In this document: positions 18,524 through 64,000 of the stretch, in pieces | Layout: every line of letters begins with the position of its first letter | Position numbering within the stretch: position 1 is the stretch's first letter | Assembly: GCF_044324785.1 (NCBI RefSeq) | Contig: NZ_CP172128.1 | Strand: one strand, 5' to 3' | DNA length: 64,000 nt | Origin: Escherichia coli | GTDB lineage: Bacteria; Pseudomonadota; Gammaproteobacteria; Enterobacterales; Enterobacteriaceae | Notes under the pieces: generated by a model | The model's input: the letters and a program-made list of their open reading frames with translations, nothing else | Told to the model about the DNA's origin: nothing | The model's database searches: none | Position numbers and translations under genes: made by a program

Positions 18524-18673
18524 TTTTGATAGTAAATTTACATATCAAAATAAATCATAAAATCGCTTTTTTTAGTGATAAAAACCTCAAAAACAAAAAC
18601 AATTAGTGATCAACATCTCATAAGTAGTACATTTATCAACCGTTCCATTAATGTTTCATTCTATCGCGAATTA

Positions 18674-19441
18674 GGTAATGACTCCAACTTATTGATAGTG
18701 TTTTATGTTCAGATAATGCCCGATGACTTTGTCATGCAGCTCCACCGATTTTGAGAACGACAGCGACTTCCGTCCCAGCCGTGCCAGGTGCTGCCTCAGA
18801 TTCAGGTTATGCCGCTCAATTCGCTGCGTATATCGCTTGCTGATTACGTGCAGCTTTCCCTTCAGGCGGGATTCATACAGCGGCCAGCCATCCGTCATCC
18901 ATATCACCACGTCAAAGGGTGACAGCAGGCTCATAAGACGCCCCAGCGTCGCCATAGTGCGTTCACCGAATACGTGCGCAACAACCGTCTTCCGGAGCCT
19001 GTCATACGCGTAAAACAGCCAGCGCTGGCGCGATTTAGCCCCGACATAGCCCCACTGTTCGTCCATTTCCGCGCAGACGATGACGTCACTGCCCGGCTGT
19101 ATGCGCGAGGTTACCGACTGCGGCCTGAGTTTTTTAAGTGACGTAAAATCGTGTTGAGGACAACGCCCATAATGCGGGCTGTTGCCCGGCATCCAACGCC
19201 ATTCATGGCCATATCAATGATTTTCTGGTGCGTACCGGGTTGAGAAGCGGTGTAAGTGAACTGCAGTTGCCATGTTTTACGGCAGTGAGAGCAGAGATAG
19301 CGCTGATGTCCGGCGGTGCTTTTGCCGTTACGCACCACCCCGTCAGTAGCTGAACAGGAGGGACAGCTGATAGAAACAGAAGCCACTGGAGCACCTCAAA
19401 AACACCATCATATACTAAATCAGTAAGTTGGCAGCATCACC
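18674..19441 (-). mobile_element. insAB: IS1 copy 2 (inverted relative to copy 1)
   Basis: 768 bp; insA/insB ORFs identical to copy 1; no flanking duplication. Confidence 0.9.
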
Positions 19442-19616
19442 CAAGGGGCCAGTCTAGCAGATTATGGTGCGCAGTTATACAACAGCAGTAATGAGGAGTC
19501 TACTATTTCTCTTGTTATGCCAGATGCAATTGAATGGAACGGAAAGAATACGCCAAGACGGCAATACATGATAAAATATATTGCCGTATTTAAATATTAA
19601 AATTTATTTTTGTAGA

Positions 19617-20024
19617 TTATCTGAATTTTCGGTGACCTTCAAGTTTTATATCGTTCATTTTATCCAGAGACTCACGTAATGATTCTATATCCCCGTCCTC
19701 AACTTTCTTTTTTGCAATATTGATTTCATGTTGTAGTTTTTTTAACTCTTCCTTATAACTATCTACAGAAACTTTATCATTAACATCTATCTTTTCAGGA
19801 ATAATATTCATAGAAGAATCTACAGATTTATCCATCATTTCAAGAGCATTTAATAGTGATGATTTATCATTGGAAGATTGTAGAATACTCATACTTTTGG
19901 CAAGAGACTGCATGTTTTTATCCAGGCCGGAAGCCAAAGATACGTTGCTGAGAGATAAAAAAATAGCTAGTACAGCACCTGAGAAAAATACCTTTTGTTT
20001 TTTCATTAATATATTCCTGTTCAA
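19617..20024 (-). CDS. cytochrome b562 family protein
   Basis: signal peptide plus four-helix-bundle-sized protein ending ...HRKFR, like the ...HQKYR C-terminus of E. coli cytochrome b562; alternative start at Met7. Confidence 0.55.
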   Translation of the reverse strand: MNRNILMKKQKVFFSGAVLAIFLSLSNVSLASGLDKNMQSLAKSMSILQSSNDKSSLLNALEMMDKSVDSSMNIIPEKIDVNDKVSVDSYKEELKKLQHEINIAKKKVEDGDIESLRESLDKMNDIKLEGHRKFR

Positions 20025-20204
20025 AGTTGATTATAGTTATGTCAATTTAAGTTTATTATTATGATTTTTTATTTTTGTACTATGAATCTCCTGTATGCTT
20101 ATATGTGCAGAAAATCTCATTTTATCAAGAAGAATATCAAATTTTCTCCGATACTTCTACATACTCCATCATTCATGCTCCTTTTATCCGTGCACCGTAA
20201 AACC

Positions 20205-20338
20205 CCGTCCTTCAGCGGGGATATAAGGCGCTGTTTTCCACCTAACCAGGTGTCTGCTGCTATTCAATGTATTGGCGGATGACGGATGCCGCCCGTTGAA
20301 GCAGGAACCCTCGTCCTTAGGGCGTGGAGGATGTCAAA
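20205..20338 (+). repeat. 134-bp direct repeat, copy 1
   Basis: ~97% identical to 28891-29024; contains short hairpins (CCCCG..CGGGG, GGCGG..CCGCC). Confidence 0.7.
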
Positions 20339-20439
20339 ATGAAAACTTGTGGTATGAATCAATCCATTCATCATCCTTTCGGATCATTGCATTCAGTATA
20401 ACGCTGGAAGAGCCTGGCAATATCACTGTATTGATGGTA

Positions 20440-21330
20440 TTACGCCATGAATTGCTTATTTCTTAAATACGACATGCACCACAGACAGGCTTTTCCTATA
20501 CCATCGGAACGAGCGGCAAGAAATAACTTGGTGGCGTGTTTATGTTCGCGCATTGGCTTTTTAAGCAATTTACCTCTGTTCAATAACGGCAATGCCAGAT
20601 GATGTGGAATATAACCAATACCGACGTTTTGTTCTATTAAGCTGATTGCCATGGCGAAGTCAGGAACAAAAATAGGTTTTTGTCCTTCCAACAACCAGGC
20701 TTGCATTGGGGGGAAGTTAACGGAGGTATCCCGGATACAAACCGCAGGATAATGACGCAATTCACTGTTTTCTAATGGATTCCGCTTCACTGCCAGTGGA
20801 TGAAGTGGGCTGACGACAAAATCCCATTCTATTTGTCCGACCGGTTCGCTAATGATGCCTTCACTGCTTGGTACTGCATGAGGAGCACCGTAGACCAGAT
20901 CAGCACGTTTACTGTACAGCGCATCCCAGCAGCCGTTGTATACTTCAATATCTACCGTCAGTGTTGTTGATGTGAATTGCCGTTCAAAATCTTGAATAAA
21001 TGACACCAGAAAATCACCAGGTATAATATTGTTCACCGCAATTGTCAGTTCACGCTCAATACCATCGTGAATCAGCACTGTGTTGCGCTTTAATGCATCC
21101 AGATCGCGGAGAATATTTTTGCTATGTTCGATGAAGTAACTCCCCGCCGGAGATAATTCAATATATCGTCCCTTACGAATGAACAGTTCAACGCCCAGGG
21201 TTTCTTCCGCTTTCTTCAGGGTGTAACTGATAGTAGAAGGGACTTTATTTAACTGTTCGGCTGCGGTGGTGATGTTCTGGTGTCTGGCGACCAGATGAAT
21301 AATTCGAATCGTTTCGTCTGAGATGAACAT
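20440..21330 (-). CDS. LysR-family transcriptional regulator
   Basis: 296 aa; N-terminal HTH (IRIIHLVARHQNITTAAEQLNKVPSTISYTLKKAEE) and LysR substrate-binding domain. Confidence 0.8.
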   Translation of the reverse strand: MFISDETIRIIHLVARHQNITTAAEQLNKVPSTISYTLKKAEETLGVELFIRKGRYIELSPAGSYFIEHSKNILRDLDALKRNTVLIHDGIERELTIAVNNIIPGDFLVSFIQDFERQFTSTTLTVDIEVYNGCWDALYSKRADLVYGAPHAVPSSEGIISEPVGQIEWDFVVSPLHPLAVKRNPLENSELRHYPAVCIRDTSVNFPPMQAWLLEGQKPIFVPDFAMAISLIEQNVGIGYIPHHLALPLLNRGKLLKKPMREHKHATKLFLAARSDGIGKACLWCMSYLRNKQFMA

Positions 21331-21407
21331 AAGGCTCCCTGGTCAGTGGTAAAGTGGCTGAATCTCTCCAGATTCAGCCGTAATCATTGCCTGAGTATAC
21401 CCAGGAA

Positions 21408-22628
21408 TTAGCGGTGTTGACTTGCCCGACTGAGAATCGCATACGCGATACATGCCACCAGAATGGAGTCAACTGAAGGGATCGTCGTCAGGGTGAATAA
21501 GCCTTTTACGGTCATAAAGCCAACCGCTGTGCCTGTGATCCATGCAGCGAATGTCAGTACTTTAACCTGTGACTCCTGAGTTAACACCGACTCTTGATAG
21601 CCATTACGGCGATAAAGGAAAAAGTCAGCGATATAAATTCCGGCAACTGGGGGAGTCGCGATACCCAGGAACAGCAGAAACGGAATAAACCACGCCATAA
21701 TATCCATACTGCCTACGATGGCGGAAAGGATACCCAGCGCAACGGTAATCTGCCATTTGGGAAAGCGGCTAAGCAGTGTGGAAACTACCAACGTCCCCTG
21801 GAACATATTGCCCGCATTACCGGTGACGCAGGCGAATATCAGCAACAGTGCTGCAGGCATAACCGCACCGAATACTGCCATAGCATTCAGTAAAGAGCCC
21901 TGGCCGCTAATGGCACTCGGCGTTGCACCCGCCCAGTATAGCAGAGGGTAGGCAACCAGAAACGTCATACCTGCGGCAATCAGAGCATGTTTTCGGTTAT
22001 GTACAAAACTACCGAAGTCGGGAAGTGTAGCAACCAGAACAATAATAGTGCCAACAACGGTGGAAACGGCGACACCTGTACTCATCTCCGCTATCGCTGC
22101 TGGCGCTGATACTTCGGTATGGGTTGCCACATAGAGTATATAACACAGCACCAGTGCGATAACCGGCACGGCGACCTGGGCAACTTTGCCCAGAATGGAA
22201 AAACCAAAGGCCGTAGAGGCGACAAAAATGACACAACCAGCTGCCACTAACAGTGCCAGTGGCGCTTCAATCCCATTCTGCGCCAGTAAGTCATGCACCG
22301 AATGACCAAACATATTAGCGGTAACGGCAATCCAGCCGAACAGACTTATAGCCATCAAAATATTAATGGCGATGGCCCCTTTTTCGCCAAATGAATATTT
22401 CACAATACCGTATGTTGGCAGGCGGGCTTTTTCTCCCACACTAATGGTGATGGCTGAAAGTAAGGTCAGAATGACGCCGCCTAATAGTACGACGCTAATT
22501 AAACTACCACTGGAAAGTTGATTGCCGAGGCTTGAGGATGACAACAGCACAGGTGTGACGGCAATACCCAGCAAAATCATGGTAATACGCAATCCTGATG
22601 CCGTATTCATATTATCTTCTTTACGCAT
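21408..22628 (-). CDS. NCS1-type (cytosine/purine/allantoin-like) permease, putative
   Basis: 406 aa polytopic membrane protein with a transporter-like profile. Confidence 0.5.
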   Translation of the reverse strand: MRKEDNMNTASGLRITMILLGIAVTPVLLSSSSLGNQLSSGSLISVVLLGGVILTLLSAITISVGEKARLPTYGIVKYSFGEKGAIAINILMAISLFGWIAVTANMFGHSVHDLLAQNGIEAPLALLVAAGCVIFVASTAFGFSILGKVAQVAVPVIALVLCYILYVATHTEVSAPAAIAEMSTGVAVSTVVGTIIVLVATLPDFGSFVHNRKHALIAAGMTFLVAYPLLYWAGATPSAISGQGSLLNAMAVFGAVMPAALLLIFACVTGNAGNMFQGTLVVSTLLSRFPKWQITVALGILSAIVGSMDIMAWFIPFLLFLGIATPPVAGIYIADFFLYRRNGYQESVLTQESQVKVLTFAAWITGTAVGFMTVKGLFTLTTIPSVDSILVACIAYAILSRASQHR

Positions 22629-22653
22629 AATATGTTTCCTTTATAAATGCGCG

Positions 22654-23043
22654 TTACATCGTGTGAAAATTCCCGGTGTATTTGCGCCAGCCCCCCAGTG
22701 CTGTAATCTCCTTCTGGCCTTCAGTCAGCCAGCTTTCTGCCAGTACGCCCAGTACTTCGCTACCATCGGCAAGTTTGATTTTTCCAATGGTCAGGCCTTC
22801 GGGTTCGTTCATTAACAGTTCGGCAAAACTGGCCAGAGGCAGTTGCCAGATTTCTACGTCTACGTGTGCTCCTCCTTCATTCACGCGGATCATTCCGGGA
22901 TGACGATCATTAATACTCCATAACCGGTAATGGGCGTCAGTTCGGTCTTCACGGACAAAAATACCGCCCGCTTTTTGCATATTTGGGTTGAGTTCCAGAC
23001 CGCGCATCAGCGTTCCGTTAACGGCTAAAAGTGTTGTAGTCAT
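22654..23043 (-). CDS. AIG2/gamma-glutamylcyclotransferase-like protein
   Basis: 129 aa with GGCT-like fold signature at the N-terminus; family assignment tentative. Confidence 0.4.
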   Translation of the reverse strand: MTTTLLAVNGTLMRGLELNPNMQKAGGIFVREDRTDAHYRLWSINDRHPGMIRVNEGGAHVDVEIWQLPLASFAELLMNEPEGLTIGKIKLADGSEVLGVLAESWLTEGQKEITALGGWRKYTGNFHTM

Positions 23044-23059
23044 TGTGTTCTCCAGAGAA

Positions 23060-24016
23060 TTAAAGGGTTATCCATGTTCCGCTCTGATGTGCCAGGGCTG
23101 CTTTTATGGTTTGCGGTGAAGTAATCAGTCCGCTGGCCTGTTTGCCTTGTTGCTGGCTGGCATTGATGAAATCAATAATGGCTTCCACTTTGGGTTGCAT
23201 ACTGCCGACACCAAACTGACCTTCCTGCAACAGCGTTTGAGCTTCGTAGACGCTGATAGCGTCGAGCCATTGTTGTTGTGGTGTACCAAAGTTAATCGCC
23301 ACTTTTTCTACACCGGTGGGGATCACCAGCAGATCAGCGCCTAACTGACTGGCGAGCAATGCGGAGGCCAGGTCTTTATCGATCACGGCTTCCACACCTT
23401 TCAGTTGTTGCCCGTCTCGCACCACAGGTATACCGCCGCCGCCGCAGGCTATAACCAGATATCCCTGGCGCACAAGGTGAGCGATGGTGTGGTGCTCAAT
23501 AATTTCCAGTGGCGCAGGAGAGGGAACTGTACGCCGCCAACCACGCCCGGCGTCCTCCATCAGCGTCCAGCCGAGTTGTTGTTGGCATTGTTGTGCTGTT
23601 TCTTCATCAAGAAACGCGCCAATCGGTTTACTGGGGCTGGCGAAAGCATCGTCATATGGGCTGACTCGCGTTTGTGTCACCAGGGTAATTACCGGTTTGT
23701 TTATGCCACGGCGAGCCAATTCGTTATGCAGCGCTTTCTGGAACATGTATCCAATGGCGCCTTGGGTATCACCCACGGCGTAATCCAGAGGAACCGGAGA
23801 AACTTCGTTACTGGCAAGTTCAGAGCGGCGCAGAATAAAGCCTACCTGCGGGCCATTACCGTGGGTTAGCACCAGGTCCCATCCGGCTTCAACCATATCA
23901 ACGATATGCTGCACGCTTTCCATTACTGCAACATATTGATCGGGAATACTATTGCGTTTATCGTCCTGAATGAGCGCATTGCCGCCAACCGCGACGACAG
24001 CCAGTGGCTTAACCAT
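23060..24016 (-). CDS. carbamate kinase-like protein (YahI/YbcF-type)
   Basis: AVVAVGGNAL ... THGNGPQVG amino-acid-kinase motifs; start taken at MVKPLAVVAVGG rather than the upstream ORF-track start. Confidence 0.75.
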   Translation of the reverse strand: MVKPLAVVAVGGNALIQDDKRNSIPDQYVAVMESVQHIVDMVEAGWDLVLTHGNGPQVGFILRRSELASNEVSPVPLDYAVGDTQGAIGYMFQKALHNELARRGINKPVITLVTQTRVSPYDDAFASPSKPIGAFLDEETAQQCQQQLGWTLMEDAGRGWRRTVPSPAPLEIIEHHTIAHLVRQGYLVIACGGGGIPVVRDGQQLKGVEAVIDKDLASALLASQLGADLLVIPTGVEKVAINFGTPQQQWLDAISVYEAQTLLQEGQFGVGSMQPKVEAIIDFINASQQQGKQASGLITSPQTIKAALAHQSGTWITL

Positions 24017-25433
24017 GATGGTTCTCCTTTGCGACGATCTCCGCCAGTTCACGTACAGCAGCGACAAAACAGGCCATCGGTGCAGTGGTGATCCCGGCAC
24101 CAATTTGTCCGACTCCCGCTTGTTTGTGGGCGATACCCGTATTGATGACCGGTAAAATGCCACGATCGGTCACTTTACACGCATCAATACCTGCTGCGGT
24201 GGGGGCAAAATTGAGGGCTGGAAGTGTAAATGCGGGGTTACCGCCGAGGGTGATTGCCTGCATCCGACGGCTGTTATTGGTGGCATCGGCAGGGGTGCCT
24301 CCCACAAATTTAACAATCGCCGGAGATGACGCCATCGCGAAGCCACCCACACCTGCGGTTTCAGTAATTGCGCTATCACCCAGGTCAGCAGCGGCGTCGT
24401 CAACGCCAAATCCGGGGAAGAACAGACCTTCAACTGCATTGGCAGGAGCCTGGAACCAGCGATCGCCAGTACCGGAAAGCCGAATACCAAAATTCACCCC
24501 GTTACGCGCCATCACCGTAACCATTGAACTGAACGGTACATTGGCGGCGGCATCCATCATTGCTTTACAGGCAGCCATCGACAAATTGAGGAAGAAGTGA
24601 TCGTTACCTGTGATAAATGCCACGACGCGCTGGATATGTTCCTGTGGAAGAGAGCAGGCCAGCAATGCCGGGAGCAGGCGCTTAATCAGCAAACCGGTAG
24701 CGGCAGCATTGCGGTTATGAACTTCATCCCCCATATGCAGCGCCTGCGCCATTAATGGCTTGAGTTCCAGCTCGCCGTGTTGTGCGATTGCTGCTTTCAT
24801 GGCCGGCGCCAGTTCATCACGCATCCAGGCCAGACGATTGAGAACTTCATCGTTATTGGCACCAAAACGGAGAACCTTACCCAGACCCTCATTGAAATTG
24901 CTAAAAGTACGATGGCCGTTGGTTTTGTTTTCCACCACCCATAATGGCATAGACGGGCTGATAATGCCTGCCATTGGTCCAACCGCGTGATAATGATGAC
25001 AAGGAGCAAGGTCGATTTCGCCTGCGTTTATCTGGTTTTCTGCGTCTTTCTGGCTTGTAGCCCAGCCTTCGTACAGCATGGCACCAATAATCGCCCCTTT
25101 TACCGGACCACACATATCTTCCCAGGCAATCGGTGGACCAGAGTGTAAAATGCGTTTTTGTTCAGCCATTTCGGGGATGGCTTCTTTAGCGAGCATGACA
25201 TCCACCAACACGGGCTGTGCTTCGAGATAACGTGTCATGGCGATTTGGTTGGCACTTTCTACCAGTGGATGGCGTAGTAATGACGCCAGAACCAAACCGG
25301 TGTCAATATCACCTTGTGCTGGCGGCTGCCAGTTGAGGGATATAGCATGCCCTCCTGCATGTTGAATATTGTCAGCAAAACTGTGTAGTCCCGCGTTCAC
25401 GACCTTCAAAGGCTGATTAAATAAGGTATTCAT
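24009..25433 (-). CDS. DUF1116 protein (YahG/YlbE-like)
   Basis: ~474 aa, conserved partner of FdrA-like and DUF2877 proteins; start taken at MNTLFNQPL. Confidence 0.65.
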   Translation of the reverse strand: MNTLFNQPLKVVNAGLHSFADNIQHAGGHAISLNWQPPAQGDIDTGLVLASLLRHPLVESANQIAMTRYLEAQPVLVDVMLAKEAIPEMAEQKRILHSGPPIAWEDMCGPVKGAIIGAMLYEGWATSQKDAENQINAGEIDLAPCHHYHAVGPMAGIISPSMPLWVVENKTNGHRTFSNFNEGLGKVLRFGANNDEVLNRLAWMRDELAPAMKAAIAQHGELELKPLMAQALHMGDEVHNRNAAATGLLIKRLLPALLACSLPQEHIQRVVAFITGNDHFFLNLSMAACKAMMDAAANVPFSSMVTVMARNGVNFGIRLSGTGDRWFQAPANAVEGLFFPGFGVDDAAADLGDSAITETAGVGGFAMASSPAIVKFVGGTPADATNNSRRMQAITLGGNPAFTLPALNFAPTAAGIDACKVTDRGILPVINTGIAHKQAGVGQIGAGITTAPMACFVAAVRELAEIVAKENHHG

Positions 25434-26989
25434 GCATTTAGCTCCTTTTTCTGCAACTGAGTCTGTGCAACGGTGCTGGCCCATAGCGCCGCCTGTGCAT
25501 TGCTGTTGGCAATGATGACGCCTGCATTTTGTAGTGAGCTTATCTGCTGACTGCGTATTTGCGGATCAGCTTCTGTTCCGCAAACGTGGGCAATCAGCAA
25601 CGGTGCATTATTCATGTCGATGTGTGAAAGTTGGTCCAGTAATTCGCTGACAGGCGTAGCGGAGGTGCCATAACCAAGTACAAGGTCGAATAACACAACG
25701 GCAGTATGTGAGTCGTTGAGTTCGTTGAGCAGACGTTGATTGCGCAGAGTCGGGTCGATCATTGGATGCGGTTTGCCACGGGTGAAATCATCGTCCCCCA
25801 TATCAATCAGTGTATGATCTTCACTTTGCCAGATATTTGCCAGAGCACGATTACCCGCAACTGGCGTATTGGAGGCGGCATGGAATCCCTTTTGTTGGCA
25901 GATAAGCTGAGCTTCGTAACAGAAGGTTCCTCCGGCGAAAACACCGCGTATCGCCTGGCGATGGACTGGCAGACTTTGGCAGGCGTTTTGTAACATTGTG
26001 AGATCGTCGCAGGAAACCTCGTTCTCGACAGCCGGAAGTGGCTGATCATTCAGTAACGCCACAGCGATGTCGGCGGCGCTGGCAAGTGTGGTGGCGGCAG
26101 TGATATTGGGACGTGCCAGATCATGCGGATTCGCCCCGAGGAAATTCACCACCACGGGTTTTCCACAAGCCTCGGCGCGCTCCAGAATAGTCCGGGCAAC
26201 GATCGGTGAAGGCGGTTTTGAAATAAGAACAATCACGTGAGTTTCATCGTCTTGTGCCAGCGCATCTAAAGCAAAGAGCATTGATATTCCACCAATCTCT
26301 TCACTGAGATCATGTCCGCCTGTTCCCAACGCCTGAGAAATACCCGCTCCGAGCTGGTCGATTCGGCAAGTCACTTCCTGTAGCCCGGTGCCTGACGCGC
26401 CAATAACACCAATTGCTCCGCGTTTCACCACATTAGCGAAGCCTAACGGAATGCCGTTAACAATGGCGGTTCCACAGTCAGGTCCCATTACGATACGCTG
26501 ACGTTCTCGGGCAAGCGTTTTGATGTATTTTTCCTGCCCGATACTGACGTTATCGCTGAACATCATCACGTTCATTCCGAGGTTTAACGCTTTAATTGCT
26601 TCGGCGGCGGCGTAGTCTCCCGGTACAGAAATGAGTGCCAGGTTGGCTTCGGGTTCAGCTTCCAGTGCCATTTCCAGGCTGACCTTTTCCGGTGATTTAA
26701 TGCCACAATCCGTTTCATCATCGGGTTTGCTGGTCAGACGTTGCTGGGCCAGTAGCAGTGCTTCATTGCAAATATCTTCTTCACCCATGACTGCAATCAC
26801 TAAATCATTGGGACTGGCGTTGATTTCGTTACCCAGACCCGCATCGCGCAATTGCTCGAGATTATTGGGTGTTCCCATGACGACCGAGGCCTGTTGAATA
26901 CCGGGCAACTTGCTGATTTGCGCGGAAATCTGCATCAGAGAAACTGAGTCCTGATAAAGATTACTGAAAACTTTATATTTAACTTTCAT
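25430..26989 (-). CDS. FdrA-like protein (YahF-type, succinyl-CoA-synthetase-alpha-like fold)
   Basis: ~519 aa, CoA-ligase/NAD-binding Rossmann-like N-domain; start taken at MKVKYKVF. Confidence 0.65.
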   Translation of the reverse strand: MKVKYKVFSNLYQDSVSLMQISAQISKLPGIQQASVVMGTPNNLEQLRDAGLGNEINASPNDLVIAVMGEEDICNEALLLAQQRLTSKPDDETDCGIKSPEKVSLEMALEAEPEANLALISVPGDYAAAEAIKALNLGMNVMMFSDNVSIGQEKYIKTLARERQRIVMGPDCGTAIVNGIPLGFANVVKRGAIGVIGASGTGLQEVTCRIDQLGAGISQALGTGGHDLSEEIGGISMLFALDALAQDDETHVIVLISKPPSPIVARTILERAEACGKPVVVNFLGANPHDLARPNITAATTLASAADIAVALLNDQPLPAVENEVSCDDLTMLQNACQSLPVHRQAIRGVFAGGTFCYEAQLICQQKGFHAASNTPVAGNRALANIWQSEDHTLIDMGDDDFTRGKPHPMIDPTLRNQRLLNELNDSHTAVVLFDLVLGYGTSATPVSELLDQLSHIDMNNAPLLIAHVCGTEADPQIRSQQISSLQNAGVIIANSNAQAALWASTVAQTQLQKKELNA

Positions 26990-27083
26990 GCTGTTACGCC
27001 TGTTCCATTCCGCCCGATAGCAAAATTCGGGCAAAGCATCCCCGTGTAGCCCCATAAACGGGCTACGGGAGAAAAGGTTGAAA

Positions 27084-27944
27084 TCAATTCATGGTGTTCA
27101 GGGTTCGAAATCCATGCAGCATTCCTGCAAGGCAATTTACTCCTGATGTTGCGCCAAATTGCATGATCTGTTCTGTACAGGATGCGATTGTCATTGCCGA
27201 TGCGCTCCCAACCAGTTGTGCGAGTAACCGGCAAATCGGTTCTGAAAAATGTCCCTGAAGCGCACGTTGCAGATAATGACGACTTATATCCGTGGTGTTG
27301 TGTGCATGTTGTTCAATTGCCTTCTGCAACCTGTATTGATGATTGGCAAGTGGTGCAGGGAGTTGCCATAACCAGAGGGCTGCCAGATAGCCCAGCAAAT
27401 AGTCATCTCCATCGGGCGTTAAGCCTTTACCAAAGCCGATCAGTTGGGGTACCTGGCGTTCCAGCGCATCTGGATGTTCCATAATATCTAATCCCTGGTG
27501 CGTGAGACTATCCGGCAGGTGCAATGTGCTTTGAACGTTATGCTCCAGACAAAATAAAAGCCGTTGCGATGCTATCGTGGGGTAGTGCTGGAAAACCAAA
27601 GGCAATGCCTCAAGAGTCAGCATTCCCCCCACAAATGGCGACTGCCAGAGCGTTGCGTTATCGAGCGCCACACAAAATCGAGGTGTCCGCAGTAAGCCTG
27701 GGGTTAACTGAATGGGATCTGAATGGGCAATCTCTCTTCGCCAGTCCCAACATTCAGGTAGCCAGACTCTGGCAGCATCAGGGAGATTCAGATACGTTTG
27801 CGCACACAACAGAGTGATGAATGTTCCCGCGTCTGAATACAGATTTACCGCATGTTTAAAAGCGCTATGTAGACGTAAATCTTGCGTTTCATTCTGCGGG
27901 AAAAGATATCCTAACGACGATGCACAAAGCGTAACCTGTACCAT
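27084..27944 (-). CDS. DUF2877 protein (YahE/YlbF-like)
   Basis: 286 aa; conserved third member of the FdrA/DUF1116/DUF2877 trio. Confidence 0.6.
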   Translation of the reverse strand: MVQVTLCASSLGYLFPQNETQDLRLHSAFKHAVNLYSDAGTFITLLCAQTYLNLPDAARVWLPECWDWRREIAHSDPIQLTPGLLRTPRFCVALDNATLWQSPFVGGMLTLEALPLVFQHYPTIASQRLLFCLEHNVQSTLHLPDSLTHQGLDIMEHPDALERQVPQLIGFGKGLTPDGDDYLLGYLAALWLWQLPAPLANHQYRLQKAIEQHAHNTTDISRHYLQRALQGHFSEPICRLLAQLVGSASAMTIASCTEQIMQFGATSGVNCLAGMLHGFRTLNTMN

Positions 27945-27949
27945 CGGCG

Positions 27950-28618
27950 TTAGCCTTCCAGACCTGCAATAATGGCTTTGGAATCAGTAACCCAACCGAA
28001 AATGGCACCTTGTGCTTTGATCATCTCAAGGGCGTATTTCTGGAATTCCGGGAAATAGGAGCCAACGCAATCTTCCGGTATGATGCATTCATAGCCACGG
28101 TCATTTGCTTCACGCACGGTGGTGGTTACGCAAACTTCGGTAGTCACGCCACAAACAATAAGTGTCTTGATACCACGCTTTTGCAAAATCAGATGTAAGT
28201 CGGTTTGATAAAAAGCGCCTTTACCGGGTTTATCAATCACAGGTTCGCCTGTCACTGGATACAGTTCAGGAATGATGTCATGACCTGCCTCACCCCTGAC
28301 CAGAATGCGTCCCATCGGTCCTGGTTCACCAATAAAGGTTTTTCCGCCGCGCGTCAGTTTGGCTGATGGGCAGTCGCTTAAGTCTTCACGATGGCCTTCA
28401 CGGGTATGAATAACCATAATTCCTTTTTGACGTGCGGCTACCAGAACTTCTTTACATGGTGCGATAGCCGTGCGAACCAGTGAAACATCATTACCCAATG
28501 CTTCTCCAAACCCTCCTGCTTCGACAAAATCACGTTGCATGTCTATCATGATCAGTGCCGTTGTGCACGGATCAAAGGGTAATTCAAAGGGTTGAGCCTG
28601 AAAAATGGATATCGTCAT
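27950..28618 (-). CDS. isochorismatase-family cysteine hydrolase
   Basis: ALIMIDMQRDF ... catalytic-Cys region IVCGVTTEVCV typical of isochorismatase/N-carbamoylsarcosine amidase family; start at MTISIF with GGAG RBS. Confidence 0.75.
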   Translation of the reverse strand: MTISIFQAQPFELPFDPCTTALIMIDMQRDFVEAGGFGEALGNDVSLVRTAIAPCKEVLVAARQKGIMVIHTREGHREDLSDCPSAKLTRGGKTFIGEPGPMGRILVRGEAGHDIIPELYPVTGEPVIDKPGKGAFYQTDLHLILQKRGIKTLIVCGVTTEVCVTTTVREANDRGYECIIPEDCVGSYFPEFQKYALEMIKAQGAIFGWVTDSKAIIAGLEG

Positions 28619-28890
28619 GACAAATCTCCAGTATATATTGTTTACTGGTGACGAGTATTCAATATAAAGGTGACCCACAACAGAAAAAAAAGTTGTTTTA
28701 CAGGAGCGAATATTTTTGAGGTGTCTAAATGTTGTTATGAAAAATGTGATTTATATCAATCTATGACATTCATAAACAACTTTTTTCAAATGTTTATTTG
28801 TTTAATATTAAAAAAATTGTCGATATATTGTGATATTAATCATCCTATTTGGCAGGGATAGTGCTGATTTTTAACAAATACCCCTTACAT

Positions 28891-29024
28891 CCGTCCTTCA
28901 ACGGGGATATAAAGCGCTGTTTTCCACCTAACCAGGTGTCTGCTGCTATTCAATGTATTGGCGGATGACGGATGCCGCCCGTTGAAGCAGGAACCCACGT
29001 CCTTAGGGCGTGGAGGATGTCAAA
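28891..29024 (+). repeat. 134-bp direct repeat, copy 2
   Basis: ~97% identical to 20205-20338, same orientation. Confidence 0.7.
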
Positions 29025-29076
29025 TACCCGCCCTCATTGAGAGAGAAGCTACGAGATTTTCGCTAAGGGACACAGG

Positions 29077-30560
29077 TCATACGGGAGATGGCGGTTCCCA
29101 GCGTTTATCCTGCTCCGGCGGAGGCAGTGATGCGTCATCGTTGCTGTTCGCCGCGATATAATCGCGGTAGTAGCGTTCACTTCCTTCCCGGTGATGATCC
29201 ACATCCGGTCGTGTAATCCTGTAGTCTTCGTGACCGGTACGGCCTGTCACATTATGCCAGGCAACCATTTCAGCAAAGACCTGGTTAAATTGTTTGTCGT
29301 TTCCTTCTGGTTCAAAGCCCATTCTGGGATCACGCTCAAACAATACAGGTGCAATCAAATCCAGTTTATCTGCCAGCGCATTGCGGTCATGGTGATTACG
29401 GAAAACAACCCTGTCACCATAATCCGTACAGACAAACTCTCCCGTCCGACGGTCACGGAAACGAACACTCCCGTTCTTCTGCAAACGGGCCTCGAGATCA
29501 CCGGTATTACCGTATACCGGCGTTCCGCCCGGTTCACAAAGCACGACACAGCGGTCTGTTGTTGTTGTGCGTGACTTGTCTTTACGGCGATCGCGATAAT
29601 CCCAGCCTCTCAACTGCGATACAGCAGCCCTGTCTCCCTGAGCAGCCTGAATTTCGACCCACTGACGGTAAGAGGGTGGATACCACTTCCCGTCAGCAAT
29701 AAGTTTCTGTCGCTCATCCCTGATGTCTTCTTTCAGCCTGATCAACGCCTGCATTCGCTGAACTTCTGCAATGTGATAATGCAGCTTACGTAATGCCGGA
29801 TCATCGTACTGCGCACGAATGTGTGACTTCCGCAGACGGCATGCCTGATGAATTTCCCGACAACGTTCCCCATTACGCAGATCTGGTTTACGCCATTGTT
29901 CACGCCATGCCAGATAGCGGGCACGCAGGTCAGCACGGGCCTCAGCTCTGGCTTCACGTCGCTGCCGGCGCAGCATTGGGTCACGTTTACTGCTGACCCC
30001 GTACCTGTCACTGACAGCCAGCTCCGGGTTATAGCGACTTTCAGGTTGCACCCTGTCAAACAAATCTGCTGGGGCACTCACAAAAGGTCCGGCCTGTGGC
30101 TCTGCACGCCCCAGAGTCAGATCAGGATGAATGCTGCTGGCCTTCACCGGCGTTTGCTCATGATTAAAGGCATCAACGACAACAAGCCCGTGATGTTGTT
30201 TCTGTAGCATCAGTCCCTGTTGTGCAAACAGCTCATGACAACGCTGCCAGGTAAACTCACCCTGTGTGATCATTTCTTCAATCTGAGGGCTACAATGGCT
30301 GATGCTGTATCCCCACAGACTTTCTTTATCAGAAAACAGTTCGCGTTTGATAGCCCCCTGCGGCCCCGTGCCTGTACGCATACGGTGCCATTCTTTATCG
30401 GTCGCAGGACAGCTCTCCATACGACGACCACGGAAGCGTTCTGTTGGCGTAACCTGGCGGAAAATATCTGTTGGTACAGGCTGCCAGCCACCATCGAGTT
30501 GATTCACATTGTCGAGCGTCAGCAGTGACCATACGCTGTCAGCACGAACGGGAGTCTGGT
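29077..30560 (-). pseudogene. NikB-like MOBP relaxase, C-terminal ~490 codons only
   Basis: N-terminal part of the translation (..TPVRADSVWSL..QPVPTDIF..) aligns with the C-terminal region of the nikB at the window end; relaxase catalytic domain absent. Confidence 0.55.
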
Positions 30561-30613
30561 TATGATATTTTTCGGATCCCGGTGAAAAAAGAGAGAAACA
30601 TGCAGATACCATG

Positions 30614-30732
30614 CATATCCATATGTTTGGCATCTGCATATGACAGGCATACGCATATCTCACACATCTGCATATCTATAACATATACATATGTATCACA
30701 TCTGCATATACTAAACATATATAAAAGCCGTC
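30614..30732. repeat. seven tandem 17-bp direct repeats, core CAT(C/A)NNCATAT
   Basis: core motif starts at 30614, 30631, 30648, 30665, 30682, 30699, 30716: exact 17-bp period; directly upstream of vagC. Confidence 0.7.
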
Positions 30733-30748
30733 TTGCCAGGAGGAAGAC

Positions 30749-30979
30749 ATGAGAACCGTATCTATTTTCAAAAATGGCAATAACCGCGCGATCCGTCTGC
30801 CCCGCGATCTGGATTTTGAGGGGGTGAGTGAGCTGGAGATTGTACGGGAAGGGGACAGAATCATTCTGCGTCCCCTCCGCCCGAGCTGGAGCTCATTCCT
30901 GGAGCTAGAAAAGGCCGATCCGGGCTTTATGACGGAACGCGAGGACGTTGTCTGCGACGAAGGACGATTTAACCTGTGA
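30749..30979 (+). CDS. vagC: VagC/VapB antitoxin (AbrB/SpoVT domain)
   Basis: 76 aa, MRTVSIFKNGNNRAIRLPRDL.. swapped-hairpin antitoxin; start/stop overlap with PIN toxin. Confidence 0.85.
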   Translation: MRTVSIFKNGNNRAIRLPRDLDFEGVSELEIVREGDRIILRPLRPSWSSFLELEKADPGFMTEREDVVCDEGRFNL

Positions 30980-31392
30980 ACAAGATCTATATGCTCGACA
31001 CGAACATCTGCTCGTTCATCATGCGCGAGCAGCCTGAAGCAGTGCTTAAGAATCTGGAGCAGGCGGTGCTGCGCGGTCACCGTATAGTGGTCTCGGCCAT
31101 CACCTACTCCGAGATGCGCTTCGGCGCCACCGGTCCAAAGGCATCGCCACGCCACGTGCAGCTGGTTGACGCGTTCTGCGCCCGTCTCGATGCCATCCTG
31201 CCCTGGGATCGCGCTGCGGTGGATGCAACCACGGAGGTTAAGGTGGCGCTGCGCCTCGCCGGCACGCCGATCGGTCCGAACGACACGGCGATCGCCGGGC
31301 ACGCCATCGCCACCGGGGCAATACTGGTGACGAATAATGTGAGAGAGTTTGAGCGGGTGCCTGGACTGGTACTGGAAGACTGGGCAGGATAA
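30976..31392 (+). CDS. vagD: VagD/VapC PIN-domain toxin
   Basis: 138 aa, PIN-domain acidic residues (MLDTNICSF.., ..VTNN..). Confidence 0.85.
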   Translation: MNKIYMLDTNICSFIMREQPEAVLKNLEQAVLRGHRIVVSAITYSEMRFGATGPKASPRHVQLVDAFCARLDAILPWDRAAVDATTEVKVALRLAGTPIGPNDTAIAGHAIATGAILVTNNVREFERVPGLVLEDWAG

Positions 31393-31395
31393 AGG

Positions 31396-31430
31396 AGTAA
31401 GGCCGCCCCCGACGGCCTTACCACTATTTT
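31396..31430 (+). terminator. rho-independent terminator-like hairpin after vagD
   Basis: GTAAGGCCG-CCCCCGAC-GGCCTTAC followed by T-rich tract. Confidence 0.5.
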
Positions 31431-31899
31431 GCGATGTCAGTCGTATTCATTTTCAGCGTTAAAAAAGGGCTCTATACGAATACGTGTATCAGCGTGAGTA
31501 AGTTTCGGCGGCCTGATAAATCCACTATTTCCCAGCTGGACAGCCAGTTGCCACATGGCATCACTACGGGGAATGCTACGATAATTCCTCTCTGTGAGGA
31601 AAGCGGCATAATCCTGATGCCCGAACGTCATGAGCACCTGTCTGATGAACTTGTGTGACCCACCGTCATTTTTAAGACATTGCATCAGCAGTGCCTGCTT
31701 CTGCCGGTCATCGGTTATTTTGGTGGAGAACCTTATCAGGGCTTGCTGGCTGAGAAGTGGTGCCTCAGAGAGCAGGGCTTCATCTTTTTCCCAGAGCCAG
31801 TTCAGGATACTGATACAGACTTCATCTGCAATCTTATCGCCATTCAGAATTAAACGAGTAATCCCCAGGTCAAACTGGTCATCAGCAAATAAAACAAGC

Positions 31900-33208
31900 T
31901 GAACCGCCCCGGGAATCCTGGAGACTAAACTCCCTGAGAAAGAGGTAAACAGAATGACTAAAAATACTCGTTTTTCCCCCGAAGTCCGTCAGAGGGCGAT
32001 TCGTATGGTTCTGGAAAGTCAGGGCGAATATGACTCACAGTGGGCGGCAATTTGTTCCATTGCCCCAAAGATTGGCTGTACACCGGAGACTCTGCGTGTC
32101 TGGGTACGCCAGCATGAGCGGGATACCGGAGGCGGTGATGGCGGGCTCACCACCGCTGAACGTCAGCGTCTGAAAGAGCTGGAACGTGAAAATCGTGAAC
32201 GCGCCGCAGTAACGATATCCTTCGCCAGGCTTCCGCTTATTTTGCGAAGGCGGAGTTCGACCGCCTCTGGAAAAAGTGATGCCACTGCTGGATAAGCTGC
32301 GTAAGCTGTACGGGGTCGGACGGGTATGCAGTGAACTACATATTGCCCCGTCAACGTATTACCACTGTCAGCAACAGCGACATCATCCTGATAAACGCAG
32401 TGCCCGTGCGCAGCGCGATGACTGGCTGAAGAAAGAGATACTGCGCGTATACGATGGGAATCATCAGGTATATGGTGTGCGTAAAGTCTGGCGTCAGTTG
32501 TTACGGGAAGGAATCAGGGTAGCCAGATGTACAGTGGCGCGCCTCATGGCGGTTATGGGACTTGCCGGTGTTCTCCGGGGTAAAAAGGTCCGCACTACCG
32601 TCAGCCGGAAAGCCGTTGCCGCAGGCGACCGCGTAAACCGTCAGTTTGTGGCAGAACGTCCTGACCAGTTGTGGGTGGCTGATTTTACTTACGTCAGCAC
32701 ATGGCAGGGGGTCGTCTATGTGGCGTTCATCATTGATGTGTTTGCCGGATACATCGTGGGGTGGCGGGTCTCATCGTCTATGGAAACGACATTCGTGCTG
32801 GATGCTCTGGAGCAGGCGTTATGGGCCCGTCGACCGTCCGGCACAGTCCATCACAGTGATAAAGGTTCTCAGTATGTATCGCTGGCCTACACACAGCGGC
32901 TTAAGGAAGCCGGATTACTGGCATCAACAGGAAGTACTGGTGACTCGTATGACAACGCGATGGCGGAGAGCATCAATGGCCTTTACAAAGCGGAGGTAAT
33001 ACACCGTAAGAGCTGGAAAAACCGGACAGAAGTGGAGCTGGCCACACTCACGTGGGTGGACTGGTATAACAATCGACGATTGCTGGAAAGGCTGGGCCAT
33101 ATCCCACCGGCAGAAGCAGAAAAAGCTTATTATGCTTCCATCGGAAACGATGATCTGGCAGCCTGAGTTCACAGATAAAACACTCTCCAGGAAACCCGGG
33201 GCGGTTCA
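31900..33208 (+). mobile_element. IS3-family insertion sequence (orfA 31954-32295, orfB 32276-33166)
   Basis: terminal inverted repeats TGAACCGCCCCGGGAATCCTGG / CCAGGAAACCCGGGGCGGTTCA; orfB with DDE-type transposase hallmarks; orfA/orfB overlap. Confidence 0.8.
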
Positions 33209-33556
33209 AACACCCTTTCTTCATCCATCCTGCGCGCTCCATCTGATAATGTTCTGACAGGTAAAAATCAAATTCTGTATGATTTTTGTGTTATCGATTT
33301 ATGATAATATCAGATATTTTTTCATTACTTATGATTAAAATCATATCTAATATGAATTTATGTGTATTGCTTAATTATCATATCACCTGCCCGTTTCCCG
33401 CCGCGCAGATCCGGTTTCCGGCTGAAGTGGATCCAGACCTGATTTGTTGCTGAGTATCGGTAAAAGTGCGGCTTATAAGCTATTCTGAAACATGGCAACT
33501 GAATCTGGGCTGTATAATTCCGGCAAGTGTCATCTGTATTTAAAGGACGTGTGAGT

Positions 33557-34009
33557 ATGAAATTTATGGAATGTGCTGTCCGGGATGTGATTTATGGGAC
33601 CAATGTCCGTCTTGTCAAACCGGTCAACATTTATGAATGTGAACTCGGGGACAATGTGTTTGTCGGCCCCTTCGTTGAGATACAGAAAGGCTGTGTCATT
33701 GGTAGTGGAAGTCGGATACAGTCGCACACGTTTATTTGTGAGAACGTAACACTGGGGGAGAAGTGCTTCATTGGTCATAACGTGACGTTCGCCAACGATC
33801 TGTTTCGTTCAGGAGCACCAGATCCGTCACCGGATAACTGGATCAGCATTACCCTGGGGGATTCGGTTACTGTTGGCAGTGGAGCCATTATTCTGTCTCC
33901 GTATATATGCAGCGGAGCTGTTATTGGTGCGGGTTCAGTTGTGGTAAAACCGATTGAGAACAAAGGCATTTATGCAGGAAACCCGGCAAGACTGCTCAGA
34001 ATATTATGA
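33557..34009 (+). CDS. hexapeptide-repeat (left-handed beta-helix) acetyltransferase
   Basis: repeated [LIV]G-x4 hexapeptides (IGSGSRIQ, IGHNVTFAND, VGSGAIILSP, IGAGSVVVKP). Confidence 0.65.
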   Translation: MKFMECAVRDVIYGTNVRLVKPVNIYECELGDNVFVGPFVEIQKGCVIGSGSRIQSHTFICENVTLGEKCFIGHNVTFANDLFRSGAPDPSPDNWISITLGDSVTVGSGAIILSPYICSGAVIGAGSVVVKPIENKGIYAGNPARLLRIL

Positions 34010-34405: not shown

Positions 34406-34763
34406 TATTAGCTCCTTCTGATGCCATTCTATTTCAGGAAGGAGTGTCCGTTAAACCCAGGCTACCTCATAGTTCATTTTCTGTTGATGCGCTGAAGATC
34501 ATTTCATTCAAAATACTGACATCTTTCATAAAGACCTCCATTTTATGTCGGGGAAAAATAAAGCACAGATAAACTATATTTTCACATTTAATTTACAAAT
34601 TGGTGGTATCAGTCACAAATAACTTACAGGTCCGGTAATATCGGTCTGTTAGTGATATTTACTGAAAATGATGGAAAGATATTGATAACGTGGTTGCCAT
34701 AACCAATGCTTCAGGGAAGCCGATATGGTTAATGTCATTACAATCGTCGCCACAGTTGCCTGT

Positions 34764-36094
34764 TAGACTGGCCCCCTGAATCTCCAGACAACCAATATCA
34801 CTTAAATAAGTGATAGTCTTAATACTAGTTTTTAGACTAGTCATTGGAGAGCAGATGATTGATGTCTTAGGACCGGAGAAACGCAGACGGCGTACTACAC
34901 AGGAAAAGATCGCTATTGTTCAGCAGAGTTTTGAACCGGGAATGACGGTCTCCCTTGTTGCCCGGCAACACGGTGTGGCAGCCAGCCAGTTATTTCTCTG
35001 GCGCAAGCAATACCAGGAGGGAAGTCTTACTGCTGTGGCCGCAGGAGAGCAGGTCGTTCCTGCCTCTGAACTTGCTGCTGCCATGAAGCAGATTAAAGAA
35101 CTCCAGCGCCTGCTCGGCAAAAAAACGATGGAAAATGAACTCCTTAAAGAAGCCGTTGAATACGGGCGTGCAAAAAAGTGGATAGCGCACGCGCCCTTAT
35201 TGCCCGGGGATGGGGAGTAAGCTTAGTCAGCCGTTGTCTCCGGGTGTCGCGTGCGCAGTTGCACGTAATTCTCAGACGAACCGATGACTGGAAAGATGGT
35301 CGCCGCAGCCGTCACTCAGATGATACGGATGTGCTTCTCCGTATACACCATGTTATCGGAGAGCTGCCCACGTATGGTTATCGTCGGGTATGGGCGCTGC
35401 TTCGCAGACAGGCCGAACTTGATGGTATGCCTGCGATCAATGCCAAACGTGTTTACCGGATCATGCGCCAGAATGCGCTGTTGCTTGAGCGAAAAACCGC
35501 TGTACCGCCATCGAAACGGGCACATACTGGCAAAGTGGCCGTGAAAGAAAGCAATCAACGATGGTGCTCTGACGGGTTCGAGTTCCGCTGTGATAACGGA
35601 GAAAAACTGCGAGTCACGTTCGCGCTGGACTGCTGTGACCGTGAGGCACTGCACTGGGCAGTCACTACGGGCGGCTTCGACAGTGAAACAGTACAGGACG
35701 TCATGCTGGGAGCGGTGGAACGCCGCTTCGGCAACGAGCTTCCGGCGTCTCCAGTAGAGTGGCTGACGGATAATGGTTCATGCTACCGGGCTAATGAAAC
35801 ACGGCAGTTTGCCCGGATGTTGGGGCTTGAACCGAAGAACACGGCGGTGCGGAGTCCGGAGAGTAACGGCATAGCAGAGAGCTTCGTGAAAACGATAAAG
35901 CGTGACTACATCAGTATCATGCCTAAACCAGACGGGTTAACGGCAGCAAAGAACCTTGCAGAGGCGTTCGAGCATTATAACGAATGGCATCCGCATAGTG
36001 CACTGGGTTATCGCTCGCCACGGGAATATCTGCGGCAGCAGGCCAGTAATGGGTTAAGTGATAACAGGTGTCTGGAAATATAGGGGCAAATCCA
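34764..36094 (+). mobile_element. IS2 copy 2
   Basis: ORFs identical to copy 1; 5-bp target duplication CCTGT on both sides. Confidence 0.9.
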
Positions 36095-36722
36095 CCTGTG
36101 TATCCGGATATTTGAAATGGATCTTCCAGAAGCGGACTCGGGTAGTATCTTCATGGTTTGGCTTTCAGCAGATCTGTGACTCTGCTATTTATTGATGAAT
36201 ATGACCTTTACAATTCCAGTTATTGTTCTGATTGCAATAATCACTTCATCACAATAATCCACCATTTTTTGTGATTATCTGGCAATAATTTTCTTTTCTG
36301 CTCCAGAGATCCGAAAACTCCTGGTTCCGGATCCGCGGATCCTTCGCTGCCGCCCGCTGGTCCGCTTTCACAGGATGTGGTGTCCCGCTCCGCTGACATG
36401 ACACTGTATGTTGTGTTTCTTCCCGTGTTCCCGAGCCAGTCATCAGCGGCAGAAAAGATCGCTTCGCTTATTCACTGATCCTGATTCACTTCCGGAAAAT
36501 CCTGAATCCGATAAAAATCGGATCATAGAAAAACAGTCATCCTGTAATTTATCATAGTTACTACATTGCAGGTTATTATTGTCATGATTACTTTTCAGGT
36601 CAGTTATTGATGGTGGTGTTAATAATAGCTGGATAACAATATTCCGTTGCCGGAGGCATGTTATAGCGTAATACTGGTGTATACTTAATGGTGTACAGAG
36701 AGTATGTAAGATGAGGTGCATT

Positions 36723-49194: not shown

Positions 49195-49551
49195 GATGTC
49201 GCCGGCGGCTCCGCTTTACCCGGCCATGCGGGGCATGGCCTTGTGGGTTTTCAACTCTGTAGCCTCAGCGTCGTGTGCGGGCTGTGCCGTGCCTCCATCG
49301 TAGCCGGGCTTCTGCGGGCGGGTTGCAAGGTAAGGTGAACCGCTGCGGTCACCCGGTCCCTCCTTCCCGTCTGCCGTGATTTTCCGGTCGTTCACCCGCT
49401 CAGATTTCGCGGTCTCACCCTCCAACTCCCGTCAGCCGTGTGCGTCAGGCTGCGGCTTCCCTTGCGCCCTTGCAACCCTGCAGGCCCGGCAAAGATGGAG
49501 GCACGGCACCGCCCGGTGTCGCGGAATATGTGAACAACGGAGGAAAACATC
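49195..49551 (+). repeat. GC-rich structured leading-region repeat, type B copy 1 (Frpo/ssi-like)
   Basis: ~360 bp nearly identical to 56148-56507; ends at klcA start. Confidence 0.6.
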
Positions 49552-56147: not shown

Positions 56148-56507
56148 AGGACGTCGCCGGCGGCTCCGCTTTTACCCGGCCATGCGGGGCATGGCCTTGT
56201 GGGTTTTCAGGTATGAAGCCATCGTGTCGTGTGCGGGCTGTGCCGTGCCTCCATCGTAGCCGGGCTTCTGCGGGCGGGATGCAAAGGTACGCTTCGCCGC
56301 TGCGGTCACCCGGTCCCTCCTTCCCGTCTGCCGTGATTTTCCGGTCGTTCACCCGCTCAGATTTCGCGGTCTCACCCTCCAACTCCCGTCAGCCGTGCGC
56401 GTCGGGCTGCGGCTTTCCTTGCGCCCTTGCATCCCTGCAGGCCCGGCAAGGATGGAGGCACGGCACCGCCCGGTGCCGCAGAACATGTGACTATGGAGGA
56501 TTCGGGA
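56148..56507 (+). repeat. GC-rich structured leading-region repeat, type B copy 2 (Frpo/ssi-like)
   Basis: nearly identical to 49195-49551; ends at ardA start. Confidence 0.6.
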
Positions 56508-58533: not shown

Positions 58534-58597
58534 TTACCCCTTGCCGTCTGCCTGTGCAGGCGGCAGGATACGTTCAGACATCTCACCAGGAGGAACC

Positions 58598-62746: not shown

Positions 62747-64000
62747 ATGAATGCCATCATTCCGAAAAAAAGACGCGACGGAAAGTCTTCTTTTGAAGAC
62801 CTGATTGCGTACACCTCAGTGCGGGATGATGTGCCGGAAGATGAACTCAGGCCAGACACGGAAATGAAAGCTGAGATTCCGCACCGGAACCGCTTCAGAC
62901 GTCTTGTTGATTATGCAACACGTCTGCGTAATGAAAAATTTGTTTCCCTGATTGATGTGATGAAAGACGGCAGTCAGTGGGTGAATTTCTATGGTGTGAC
63001 CTGCTTTCATAACTGTTTGTCTCTTGAATCTGCGGCTGAAGAAATGCAGAAAGCAGCAGACCTTGCTCATTTTTCCAAAGATGATACAGATCCTGTTTTT
63101 CACTATATTCTCTCCTGGCCTGCGCACGAAAGTCCGCGTTCTGAGCAGCTTTTTGACTGTGTGCGTCACACCCTGAAATCCCTTGAGCTGTCAAAACATC
63201 AGTATGTGGCAGCCGTTCATACAGACACGGATAACCTGCATGTACATGTTGCAGTGAATCGTGTCCACCCTGAAACCGGCTATATCAATTGCCTTCCGTG
63301 GAGCCAGGAAAAACTCAGCCGTGCATGTCGTGAACTTGAACTTAAGCACGGATTCGCGCCTGATAATGGCTGCTTTGTGCATGCACCCGGCAACCGTATT
63401 GTGCGCAAAACAGCGCTGGTACGTGAGCGCCGTAATGCCTGGCGACGCGGGAAAAAGCAGACGTTCAGGGAATATATTGCGCAGATGTCGATTGCCGGTC
63501 TGCGTGAAGAGCCCGCACAGGACTGGTTATCTTTGCATAAACGGCTGGCCAGTGATGGTCTGTATATCACGATGCAGGAAGGGGAACTGGTGGTGAAGGA
63601 TGGCTGGGACAGAGCGCGGGAAGGTGTTGCACTCAGTTCGTTCGGACCGTCATGGACAGCTGAAAAACTGGGGCGGAAACTGGGGGAATATCAGCCTGTA
63701 CCGACAGATATTTTCAGTCAGGTGGGGGCACCCGGTCGTTATGATCCGGAAGCCATTAACGTGGATATCCGGCCGGAAAAAGTGGCAGAAACGGAGAGTC
63801 TGAAACAGTACGCCTGTCGTCACTTTGCTGAACGCTTACCGAAAATGGCGCGAAATGGTGAACTGAAAAGTTGCCTGGCTGTACACCGTACTCTGGCAGA
63901 GGCGGGATTATGGATGGGGATTCAGCACGGGCATCTGGTACTGCATGATGGATTTGAACCACAGCAGACGCCGGTTCGTGCAGACAGTATATGGCCGTTG
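62747..64000 (+). CDS. nikB: NikB MOBP relaxase, 5' part (runs off window end)
   Basis: open frame from ATG 62747 to window end; relaxase motifs VFHYILSW and HTDTDNLHVHVAVNRV. Confidence 0.8.
   Translation, partial: MNAIIPKKRRDGKSSFEDLIAYTSVRDDVPEDELRPDTEMKAEIPHRNRFRRLVDYATRLRNEKFVSLIDVMKDGSQWVNFYGVTCFHNCLSLESAAEEMQKAADLAHFSKDDTDPVFHYILSWPAHESPRSEQLFDCVRHTLKSLELSKHQYVAAVHTDTDNLHVHVAVNRVHPETGYINCLPWSQEKLSRACRELELKHGFAPDNGCFVHAPGNRIVRKTALVRERRNAWRRGKKQTFREYIAQMSIAGLREEPAQDWLSLHKRLASDGLYITMQEGELVVKDGWDRAREGVALSSFGPSWTAEKLGRKLGEYQPVPTDIFSQVGAPGRYDPEAINVDIRPEKVAETESLKQYACRHFAERLPKMARNGELKSCLAVHRTLAEAGLWMGIQHGHLVLHDGFEPQQTPVRADSIWPL

Follow-up and report, generated by a model that had tools for sequence, protein, structure and literature searches.

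A stretch of 1,490 nt on the minus strand of the Escherichia coli contig NZ_CP172128.1, which was analysed within a window of 64,000 nt, is very probably the 3' remnant (pseudogene) of an IncI1-type nikB gene, namely a recombination scar without function (hereafter referred to as the relic). The initial annotation had placed a nikB-like fragment at 29077-30560, and both its existence and its place were confirmed by tblastn and blastn. Residues 405-898 of the IncI1-type NikB of pZPK-H5 (899 aa) aligned to window positions 30564-29083 with 99.4% amino acid identity in tblastn, and the nikB gene of the same plasmid matched the relic over 1483 nt with 17 mismatches and 0 gaps (98.9%) in blastn, a colinear and near-identical nucleotide match by which this DNA is assigned to IncI1-type nikB. 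IncI1 nikB alleles showed gapless matches at 98-98.9% nucleotide identity, and approximately 1,500 nikB-bearing records of PLSDB matched the relic at 95-99%. With regard to the limits, the position 29077 (the end of the stop codon) was correct, whereas the right edge had been set 6 nt short of the true limit at 30566. The share of the gene that is preserved had also been overestimated, as the fragment described as the C-terminal two thirds corresponds to 495 of 899 codons (55%). Codons 1-404 are absent, and both breakpoints could be mapped, one at the motif TATGAT on the 5' side and the other at the last codon on the 3' side (Table 1). The mechanically called open reading frame (ORF) that spans the relic is 29077..30663 on the minus strand (528 aa, GTG start), and its NikB-like translation begins at residue 35.

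The pseudogene status of this region is already known from public annotation, since PGAP/RefSeq labels it as a pseudogene ('IncI1-type relaxase NikB; incomplete; missing N-terminus'). The annotated nikB pseudogene of plasmid NZ_CP100531.1 (locus NLZ08_RS24455) and of sibling plasmids is 100% identical in sequence to the relic, but its annotation is silent on origin, junction, and distribution. Some other database records call the region 'hypothetical protein', and we found nothing specific in the literature on a nikB remnant in ColV/ColBM or IncK2 plasmids.

Table 1. Positions of the nikB relic, its junctions, and related features in the window.
Feature	Position	Strand	Remarks
134-bp repeat	28891..29024	plus	Second direct copy at 20205-20338; the pair brackets an 8.5-kb metabolic cluster
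3' junction region	29025..29084		About 60 bp of unique DNA by the nikB end; gives the last codon (Val) and the TGA stop
nikB relic	29077..30566	minus	IncI1-type codons 405-899 and stop; 1,490 nt; without its own start codon
5' junction, 6-bp microhomology TATGAT	30561..30566		From a three-way comparison of window, IncF parent, and IncI1 parent
Spurious 5' extension of the mechanical ORF	30567..30663	minus	34 codons, GTG start; DNA upstream of vapBC, not nikB
IncF-derived fragment, 1,340 bp	30561..31900	plus	99.6% identical to pAPEC-O2-211A-ColV (L006 4001-5340); ends at the IS left end
17-bp repeat array, about 7 copies, core CATCTGCATAT	30597..30725		Part of the IncF vapBC upstream region
vapB	30749-30979	plus	Within the IncF-derived fragment
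vapC	30976-31392	plus	Within the IncF-derived fragment
IS3-family insertion sequence	31899..33208	plus	ALIL frameshift pseudoknot at 32234-32350 (Rfam)
nikA of the resident backbone	62403-62735		Upstream of resident nikB
Resident nikB of the IncK2/Z backbone	62747..64000	plus	First 418 codons in the window, runs off the end; presumably functional

On the 5' side of the relic, nikB DNA is fused at codon 404/405 to sequence from upstream of an IncF-type vapBC. The window reads ...GGAGTCTGGT[TATGAT]ATTTTTCGG... at this junction, the IncI1 parent reads ...GGAGTCTGGT[TATGAT]CATAACCG..., and the IncF parent (pAPEC-O2-211A-ColV) reads ...TTTCCTAC[TATGAT]ATTTTTCGG.... Homology to nikB stops at 30566 and homology to other vapBC plasmids starts at 30561. 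Both parents could thus be identified, the six bases TATGAT are common to them at the crossover, and neither an IS end nor a recombinase site was found there. Microhomology of a few bp at a junction is the usual signature of illegitimate recombination, and by our own arithmetic a random junction would show an overlap of six or more bases with a probability of about 7/4096. Besides vapB and vapC, the IncF-derived fragment holds the 3' end of a truncated gene; in pAPEC-O2-211A-ColV and pU302L, vapBC comes after a HEPN-nuclease gene. The region 30561-30790, including an array of 17-bp repeats, is approximately 99% conserved in about 395 plasmids, most of which are of IncF type. The initial annotation had the nikB-like ORF ending in this array; the first 34 codons of the ORF are read-through into the DNA upstream of vapBC. 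The array is contained in the IncF piece (30561-31900) and is thus assigned to the vapBC control region and not to nikB. A consensus scan detected a plus-strand promoter-like site at 30684-30712 that overlaps the array. Given as it is directly in front of vapB, the array could serve as operator of vapBC.

At the 3' side, the relic and the IncI1 alleles diverge just after ...CC(A/T)TCTCC, within the last one to three codons, and the flank beyond consists of 60 bp of unique sequence followed by a 134-bp repeat. IncI1-type nikB alleles also diverge among themselves a few nucleotides after ...CCTTCTCC (window approximately 29077-29090; alleles L005, L012, L013, and L014), and their last residues differ by allele (PSPG, PSPMR, PSPVLSR, or PSPV, each followed by the stop). 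The nikB and trbC genes of IncI1 plasmids converge on a 36-bp spacer (PMC4288162; also observed in sequence), and therefore viable accessory insertions must land in that spacer. The recurrent breakpoint lies in it and may result from nothing more than selection that keeps the two flanking genes intact. The position of the 3' junction suggests that it was formed while nikB still worked. An intact nikB with the 3' junction of the relic (flank TCTCCCGTATGACCTGTG) was found neither in PLSDB nor in complete E. coli genomes nor in a metagenome scan, and the ranked matches from PLSDB and complete E. coli genomes passed directly from 11 full-context hits to hits on plain nikB.

The two copies of the 134-bp repeat next to this junction are 97.8% identical and contain several short hairpins. 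The 8.5-kb cluster that they bracket includes genes for LysR, cytosine permease, carbamate kinase, DUF1116, fdrA, DUF2877, and cysteine hydrolase. In pE16-3, pTB-nb2 (both plasmids), and the metagenome contig L024, the repeat occurs once and the cluster is missing, implying that the cluster has been gained or lost through the repeats. About 85 nt of the repeat are 87-91% similar to sequence that thousands of E. coli chromosomes carry at loci annotated as IS200/IS605-family tnpA. An Rfam scan of positions 18000-34000, carried out to explain this structured repeat, found the IS3 ALIL pseudoknot alone.

The long relic joined to vapBC was found in 11 PLSDB plasmids. Among the seven that were checked, six have IncK2/Z backbones and one has an IncI-gamma/K1 backbone, all seven are of the I-complex with MPF_I, and the source is poultry in each of the five cases for which it is recorded; a country is given for all seven, and these are Switzerland, China, Laos, France, and Japan. 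A sibling of the window is plasmid pLH10-b-1-A (NZ_CP100531.1, 169 kb, IncK2/Z, MPF_I) from chicken faeces, compared with which the window has two extra 1.33-kb IS copies. The sites of these IS3-family copies (17195-18524 and 34763-36095) are empty in NZ_CP100531.1, which is otherwise 99.9-100% identical, and the copies are recent insertions.

Shorter versions of the relic are widespread. Its last 434 nt alone (window 29077-29510), with an identical 3' flank, occur in approximately 74 further plasmids, in which the IS3-family element known from the window cuts the relic, with the IS end that is also involved here abutting nikB position 29510. One of the carriers is an IncK2/Z plasmid, and others include IncFIB/IncFIC, MOBF/MPF_F ColV plasmids without I-type transfer genes, such as pAPEC-O2-211A-ColV and pACN001-B. 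The short remnant of these ColV plasmids has the same 3' junction, the same metabolic cluster, and identical last 434 nt as the relic, but differs in being cut by the IS3-family element and in that vapBC is located elsewhere, in its usual IncF context. When metagenomes were scanned with a 28-mer spanning the 3' junction, five contigs were returned, all with shorter relics: four hold the 434-nt form, in one case adjoining a complete IS copy, and the fifth (L024) holds a 602-nt form joined to one of the leading-region repeats. The forms of 1,490, 602, and 434 nt are nested, with one end common and the other variable, a pattern that fits a progressive erosion of a dispensable remnant. The window arrangement is the most complete form seen.

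Compared with IncI1-type NikB, a relaxase of the MOBP family (R64/ColIb-P9 type), the relic keeps the TraI_middle and C-terminal region but lacks residues 1-404, nikA and oriT, and the convergent trbC after the gene. The earlier proposal that the catalytic domain is missing was borne out by Pfam: PF03432 (Relaxase) was detected at residues 85-203 of full IncI1 NikB (E 5.6e-31) and was absent from the relic, in which PF22863 (TraI_middle) is retained as the sole Pfam match. For the NCBIfam model NF041893 (TraI/MobA(P) conjugative relaxase), the score was 172 bits for the relic, which is below the curated cutoff of 250 bits, and 416 bits for full NikB. Neither nikA nor oriT was found beside the relic in the window, as tblastn places nikA at 62403-62726 only, near the resident gene. 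The relic thus fails as a MOBP relaxase in domain content (PF03432), in model score (NF041893 cutoff), and in operon context (nikA/oriT upstream), and without the nuclease domain PF03432 it would not be expected to have nicking or transfer activity. A consensus scan revealed no minus-strand promoter-like site 5' of the relic, although such scans are weak evidence, and no convincing ribosome-binding site was seen ahead of the in-frame ATG codons when the sequence was read. The open frame is intact across all 495 codons, as is expected for a young remnant at such divergence, and the occurrence of the 434-nt and 602-nt versions with a common 3' junction marks the relic as dispensable. Judged from its sequence, nothing points to a function of the relic, and it would best be described as a decaying scar with no evident function.

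The substitution pattern was examined before and after truncation. Relative to four IncI1 alleles, 13 changes are unique to the relic (not counting the stop and the two codons before it, situated at the 3' junction), including 11 synonymous and 2 non-synonymous ones (Y635N and R734K). This 11:2 excess of synonymous changes is the divergence pattern of a working gene, and the source of the relic was therefore a nikB lineage to which no PLSDB record comes closer than 98.9%. When the long-relic copies were compared with one another, all three changes inside the relic were non-synonymous (S414T, A475D, and R634S); in comparison with 2 of 13, this gives a one-sided Fisher probability of about 0.018 (our own arithmetic on small counts), which is suggestive of relaxed constraint after truncation as far as such small counts go. 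The near-identity of the 11 long copies is equally strong in their flanks and thus reflects recent spread rather than selection.

The IncK2/Z backbone has a nikB gene of its own, and we examined whether the relic could have been derived from it. The full resident gene (900 codons) was taken from the sibling plasmid NZ_CP100531.1 (L002 10658-13360). The relic is colinear with residues 407-898 of full resident NikB at 67% amino acid and approximately 71% nucleotide identity, and hence the similarity is not confined to low-complexity segments. The two share the same architecture and the same internal repeats of about 100 aa, but the resident gene is full length and has nikA upstream. NikB comprises approximately three such tandem units (...HGxLVxxDxFxxxQTPVxAxSI...QxVPxDIFxxVxPxxRY...) that match the TraI_middle region, and because of these repeats off-register matches between the relic and the resident protein occur. 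Since just 418 resident codons are present in the window, the C-terminal parts of the two cannot be aligned within it. Of the two shared blocks cited in the initial annotation, QTPVRADS(V/I)W is orthologous (resident residues 407-418) and is the only orthologous overlap of relic and resident gene inside the window, whereas QPVPTDIF is off-register and matches different copies of the internal repeat (resident residue ~318 versus relic equivalent ~430). The presence of two nikB-like sequences on one plasmid and the scattered matches that the NikB repeats give to the visible resident part might be taken to mean that the plasmid duplicated its own nikB internally and then lost the 5' part of one copy, an origin that had been suggested previously. 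We rejected this origin, which has practically no chance of being correct: identity is about 71% (nucleotide) and 67% (amino acid) to resident nikB versus 98-98.9%, i.e., up to 99%, to the IncI1 alleles, so that the relic is foreign DNA and not a duplicate, and the same relic occurs in IncF plasmids without any resident nikB.

The second origin suggested previously, a fusion of two IncI-type transfer regions, is right with regard to recombination between plasmids but not with regard to the partners, as the 5' partner is an IncF vapBC and the 3' flank is accessory DNA. A related scenario is that an IncI1 plasmid cointegrated directly with the IncK2/Z backbone and the rest of the IncI1 partner was lost. 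All seven checked long-relic plasmids have I-complex backbones and, in structure, the short form looks derived from the long one, which would be consistent with such an event. However, we consider it improbable: both flanks of the relic are non-I-complex, a tblastn search of the window for further IncI1 pieces (trbC, nikA, or the missing 5' portion of nikB) detected none, and the relic is located tens of kilobases from the backbone transfer genes, in an IS-rich accessory region. Furthermore, the identical 3' junction is present in IncFIB/IncFIC ColV plasmids (MOBF/MPF_F, no I-type transfer genes), implying that the relic travels with a ColV/ColBM-type accessory module and is no remainder of another transfer region in this backbone. 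Still less credible is that the relic is expressed as an N-terminally truncated NikB with its own role, either as a dead competitor of IncI1 conjugation or as a coupling-protein partner. Its ORF of 528 codons is uninterrupted, the TraI_middle and C-terminal region is kept, and it is divergent to the vapBC control region, which could drive divergent transcription. Nevertheless, the lack of a detected minus-strand promoter-like site and of a convincing ribosome-binding site, the presence of the dispensable 434- and 602-nt versions in many plasmids, the exclusively non-synonymous changes (3/3) after truncation, and the extension of the identity of the 11 long copies into their flanks, which indicates recent spread, all speak against such a role. 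It would be a similarly long shot that a catalytically inactive C-terminal half of NikB, made from an internal start near vapBC, acts as an IncI1 fertility inhibitor, or that the relic is a homology patch kept for cointegration with IncI1 plasmids.

If the relic is a functionless scar of an IncI1-type nikB, as we favor, its history could be reconstructed as follows, although the order of events is inferred. Accessory DNA might have been acquired first in the nikB-trbC spacer of an IncI1-type plasmid whose nikB was working. Illegitimate recombination with IncF DNA would then have truncated nikB; the crossover at TATGAT removed the relaxase domain, nikA, and oriT. The resulting mosaic may have joined a ColV/ColBM-type accessory module that is now found on both IncK2/Z and IncF plasmids. 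Finally, rearrangements next to an IS3-family element or other elements might have shortened the relic of 1,490 nt in some lineages, so that 602 or 434 nt were left. By itself the relic would do nothing; apart from an effect on plasmid typing, its only likely effect is that its 1.5 kb of near-identical DNA could serve for RecA-dependent recombination with an IncI1 plasmid in the same cell.

The relic lies inside a very large IS-rich accessory region in the IncK2/Z backbone (window approximately 1-43600). This region contains genes for raffinose and sucrose utilisation, an iron ABC transporter, cytochrome b562, the metabolic cluster, and vapBC, and further holds ccdAB with a site-specific integrase as well as colicin M/B genes; several of its blocks are shared with IncF plasmids of the ColV/ColBM kind from avian pathogenic E. 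coli. Repeats of 83-96% identity were observed in the leading region (ssb, psiB, and ardA side) of the I-complex backbone, at 50837-51334, 57191-57686, and 60664-60773 and also at 49215-49533 and 56171-56490, and they may be the single-strand promoter/initiation repeats for which leading regions are known. In addition, an Rpn-family ORF (recombination-promoting nuclease/putative transposase) at 58508-59560 has tandem QQGI(Q) repeats near its C-terminus (GIQQGIQQGIQQ...).

In terms of biology, the relic carries little weight, as it merely adds to the scars of a highly mosaic plasmid. For automated plasmid typing, it may produce extra relaxase hits and thus inflate relaxase counts; MOB-suite gave two to four MOBP hits in long-relic plasmids and one in the short-relic IncK2/Z plasmid. 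The relic is also the trace of an earlier exchange in which IncI1 and IncF plasmids recombined at a microhomology. With nested deletions (1,490, 602, and 434 nt) that suggest an order of events, it is a clean marker of ancestry by which a poultry-associated lineage of IncK2/Z plasmids with virulence genes of ColBM type is linked to ColV plasmids from avian pathogenic E. coli.
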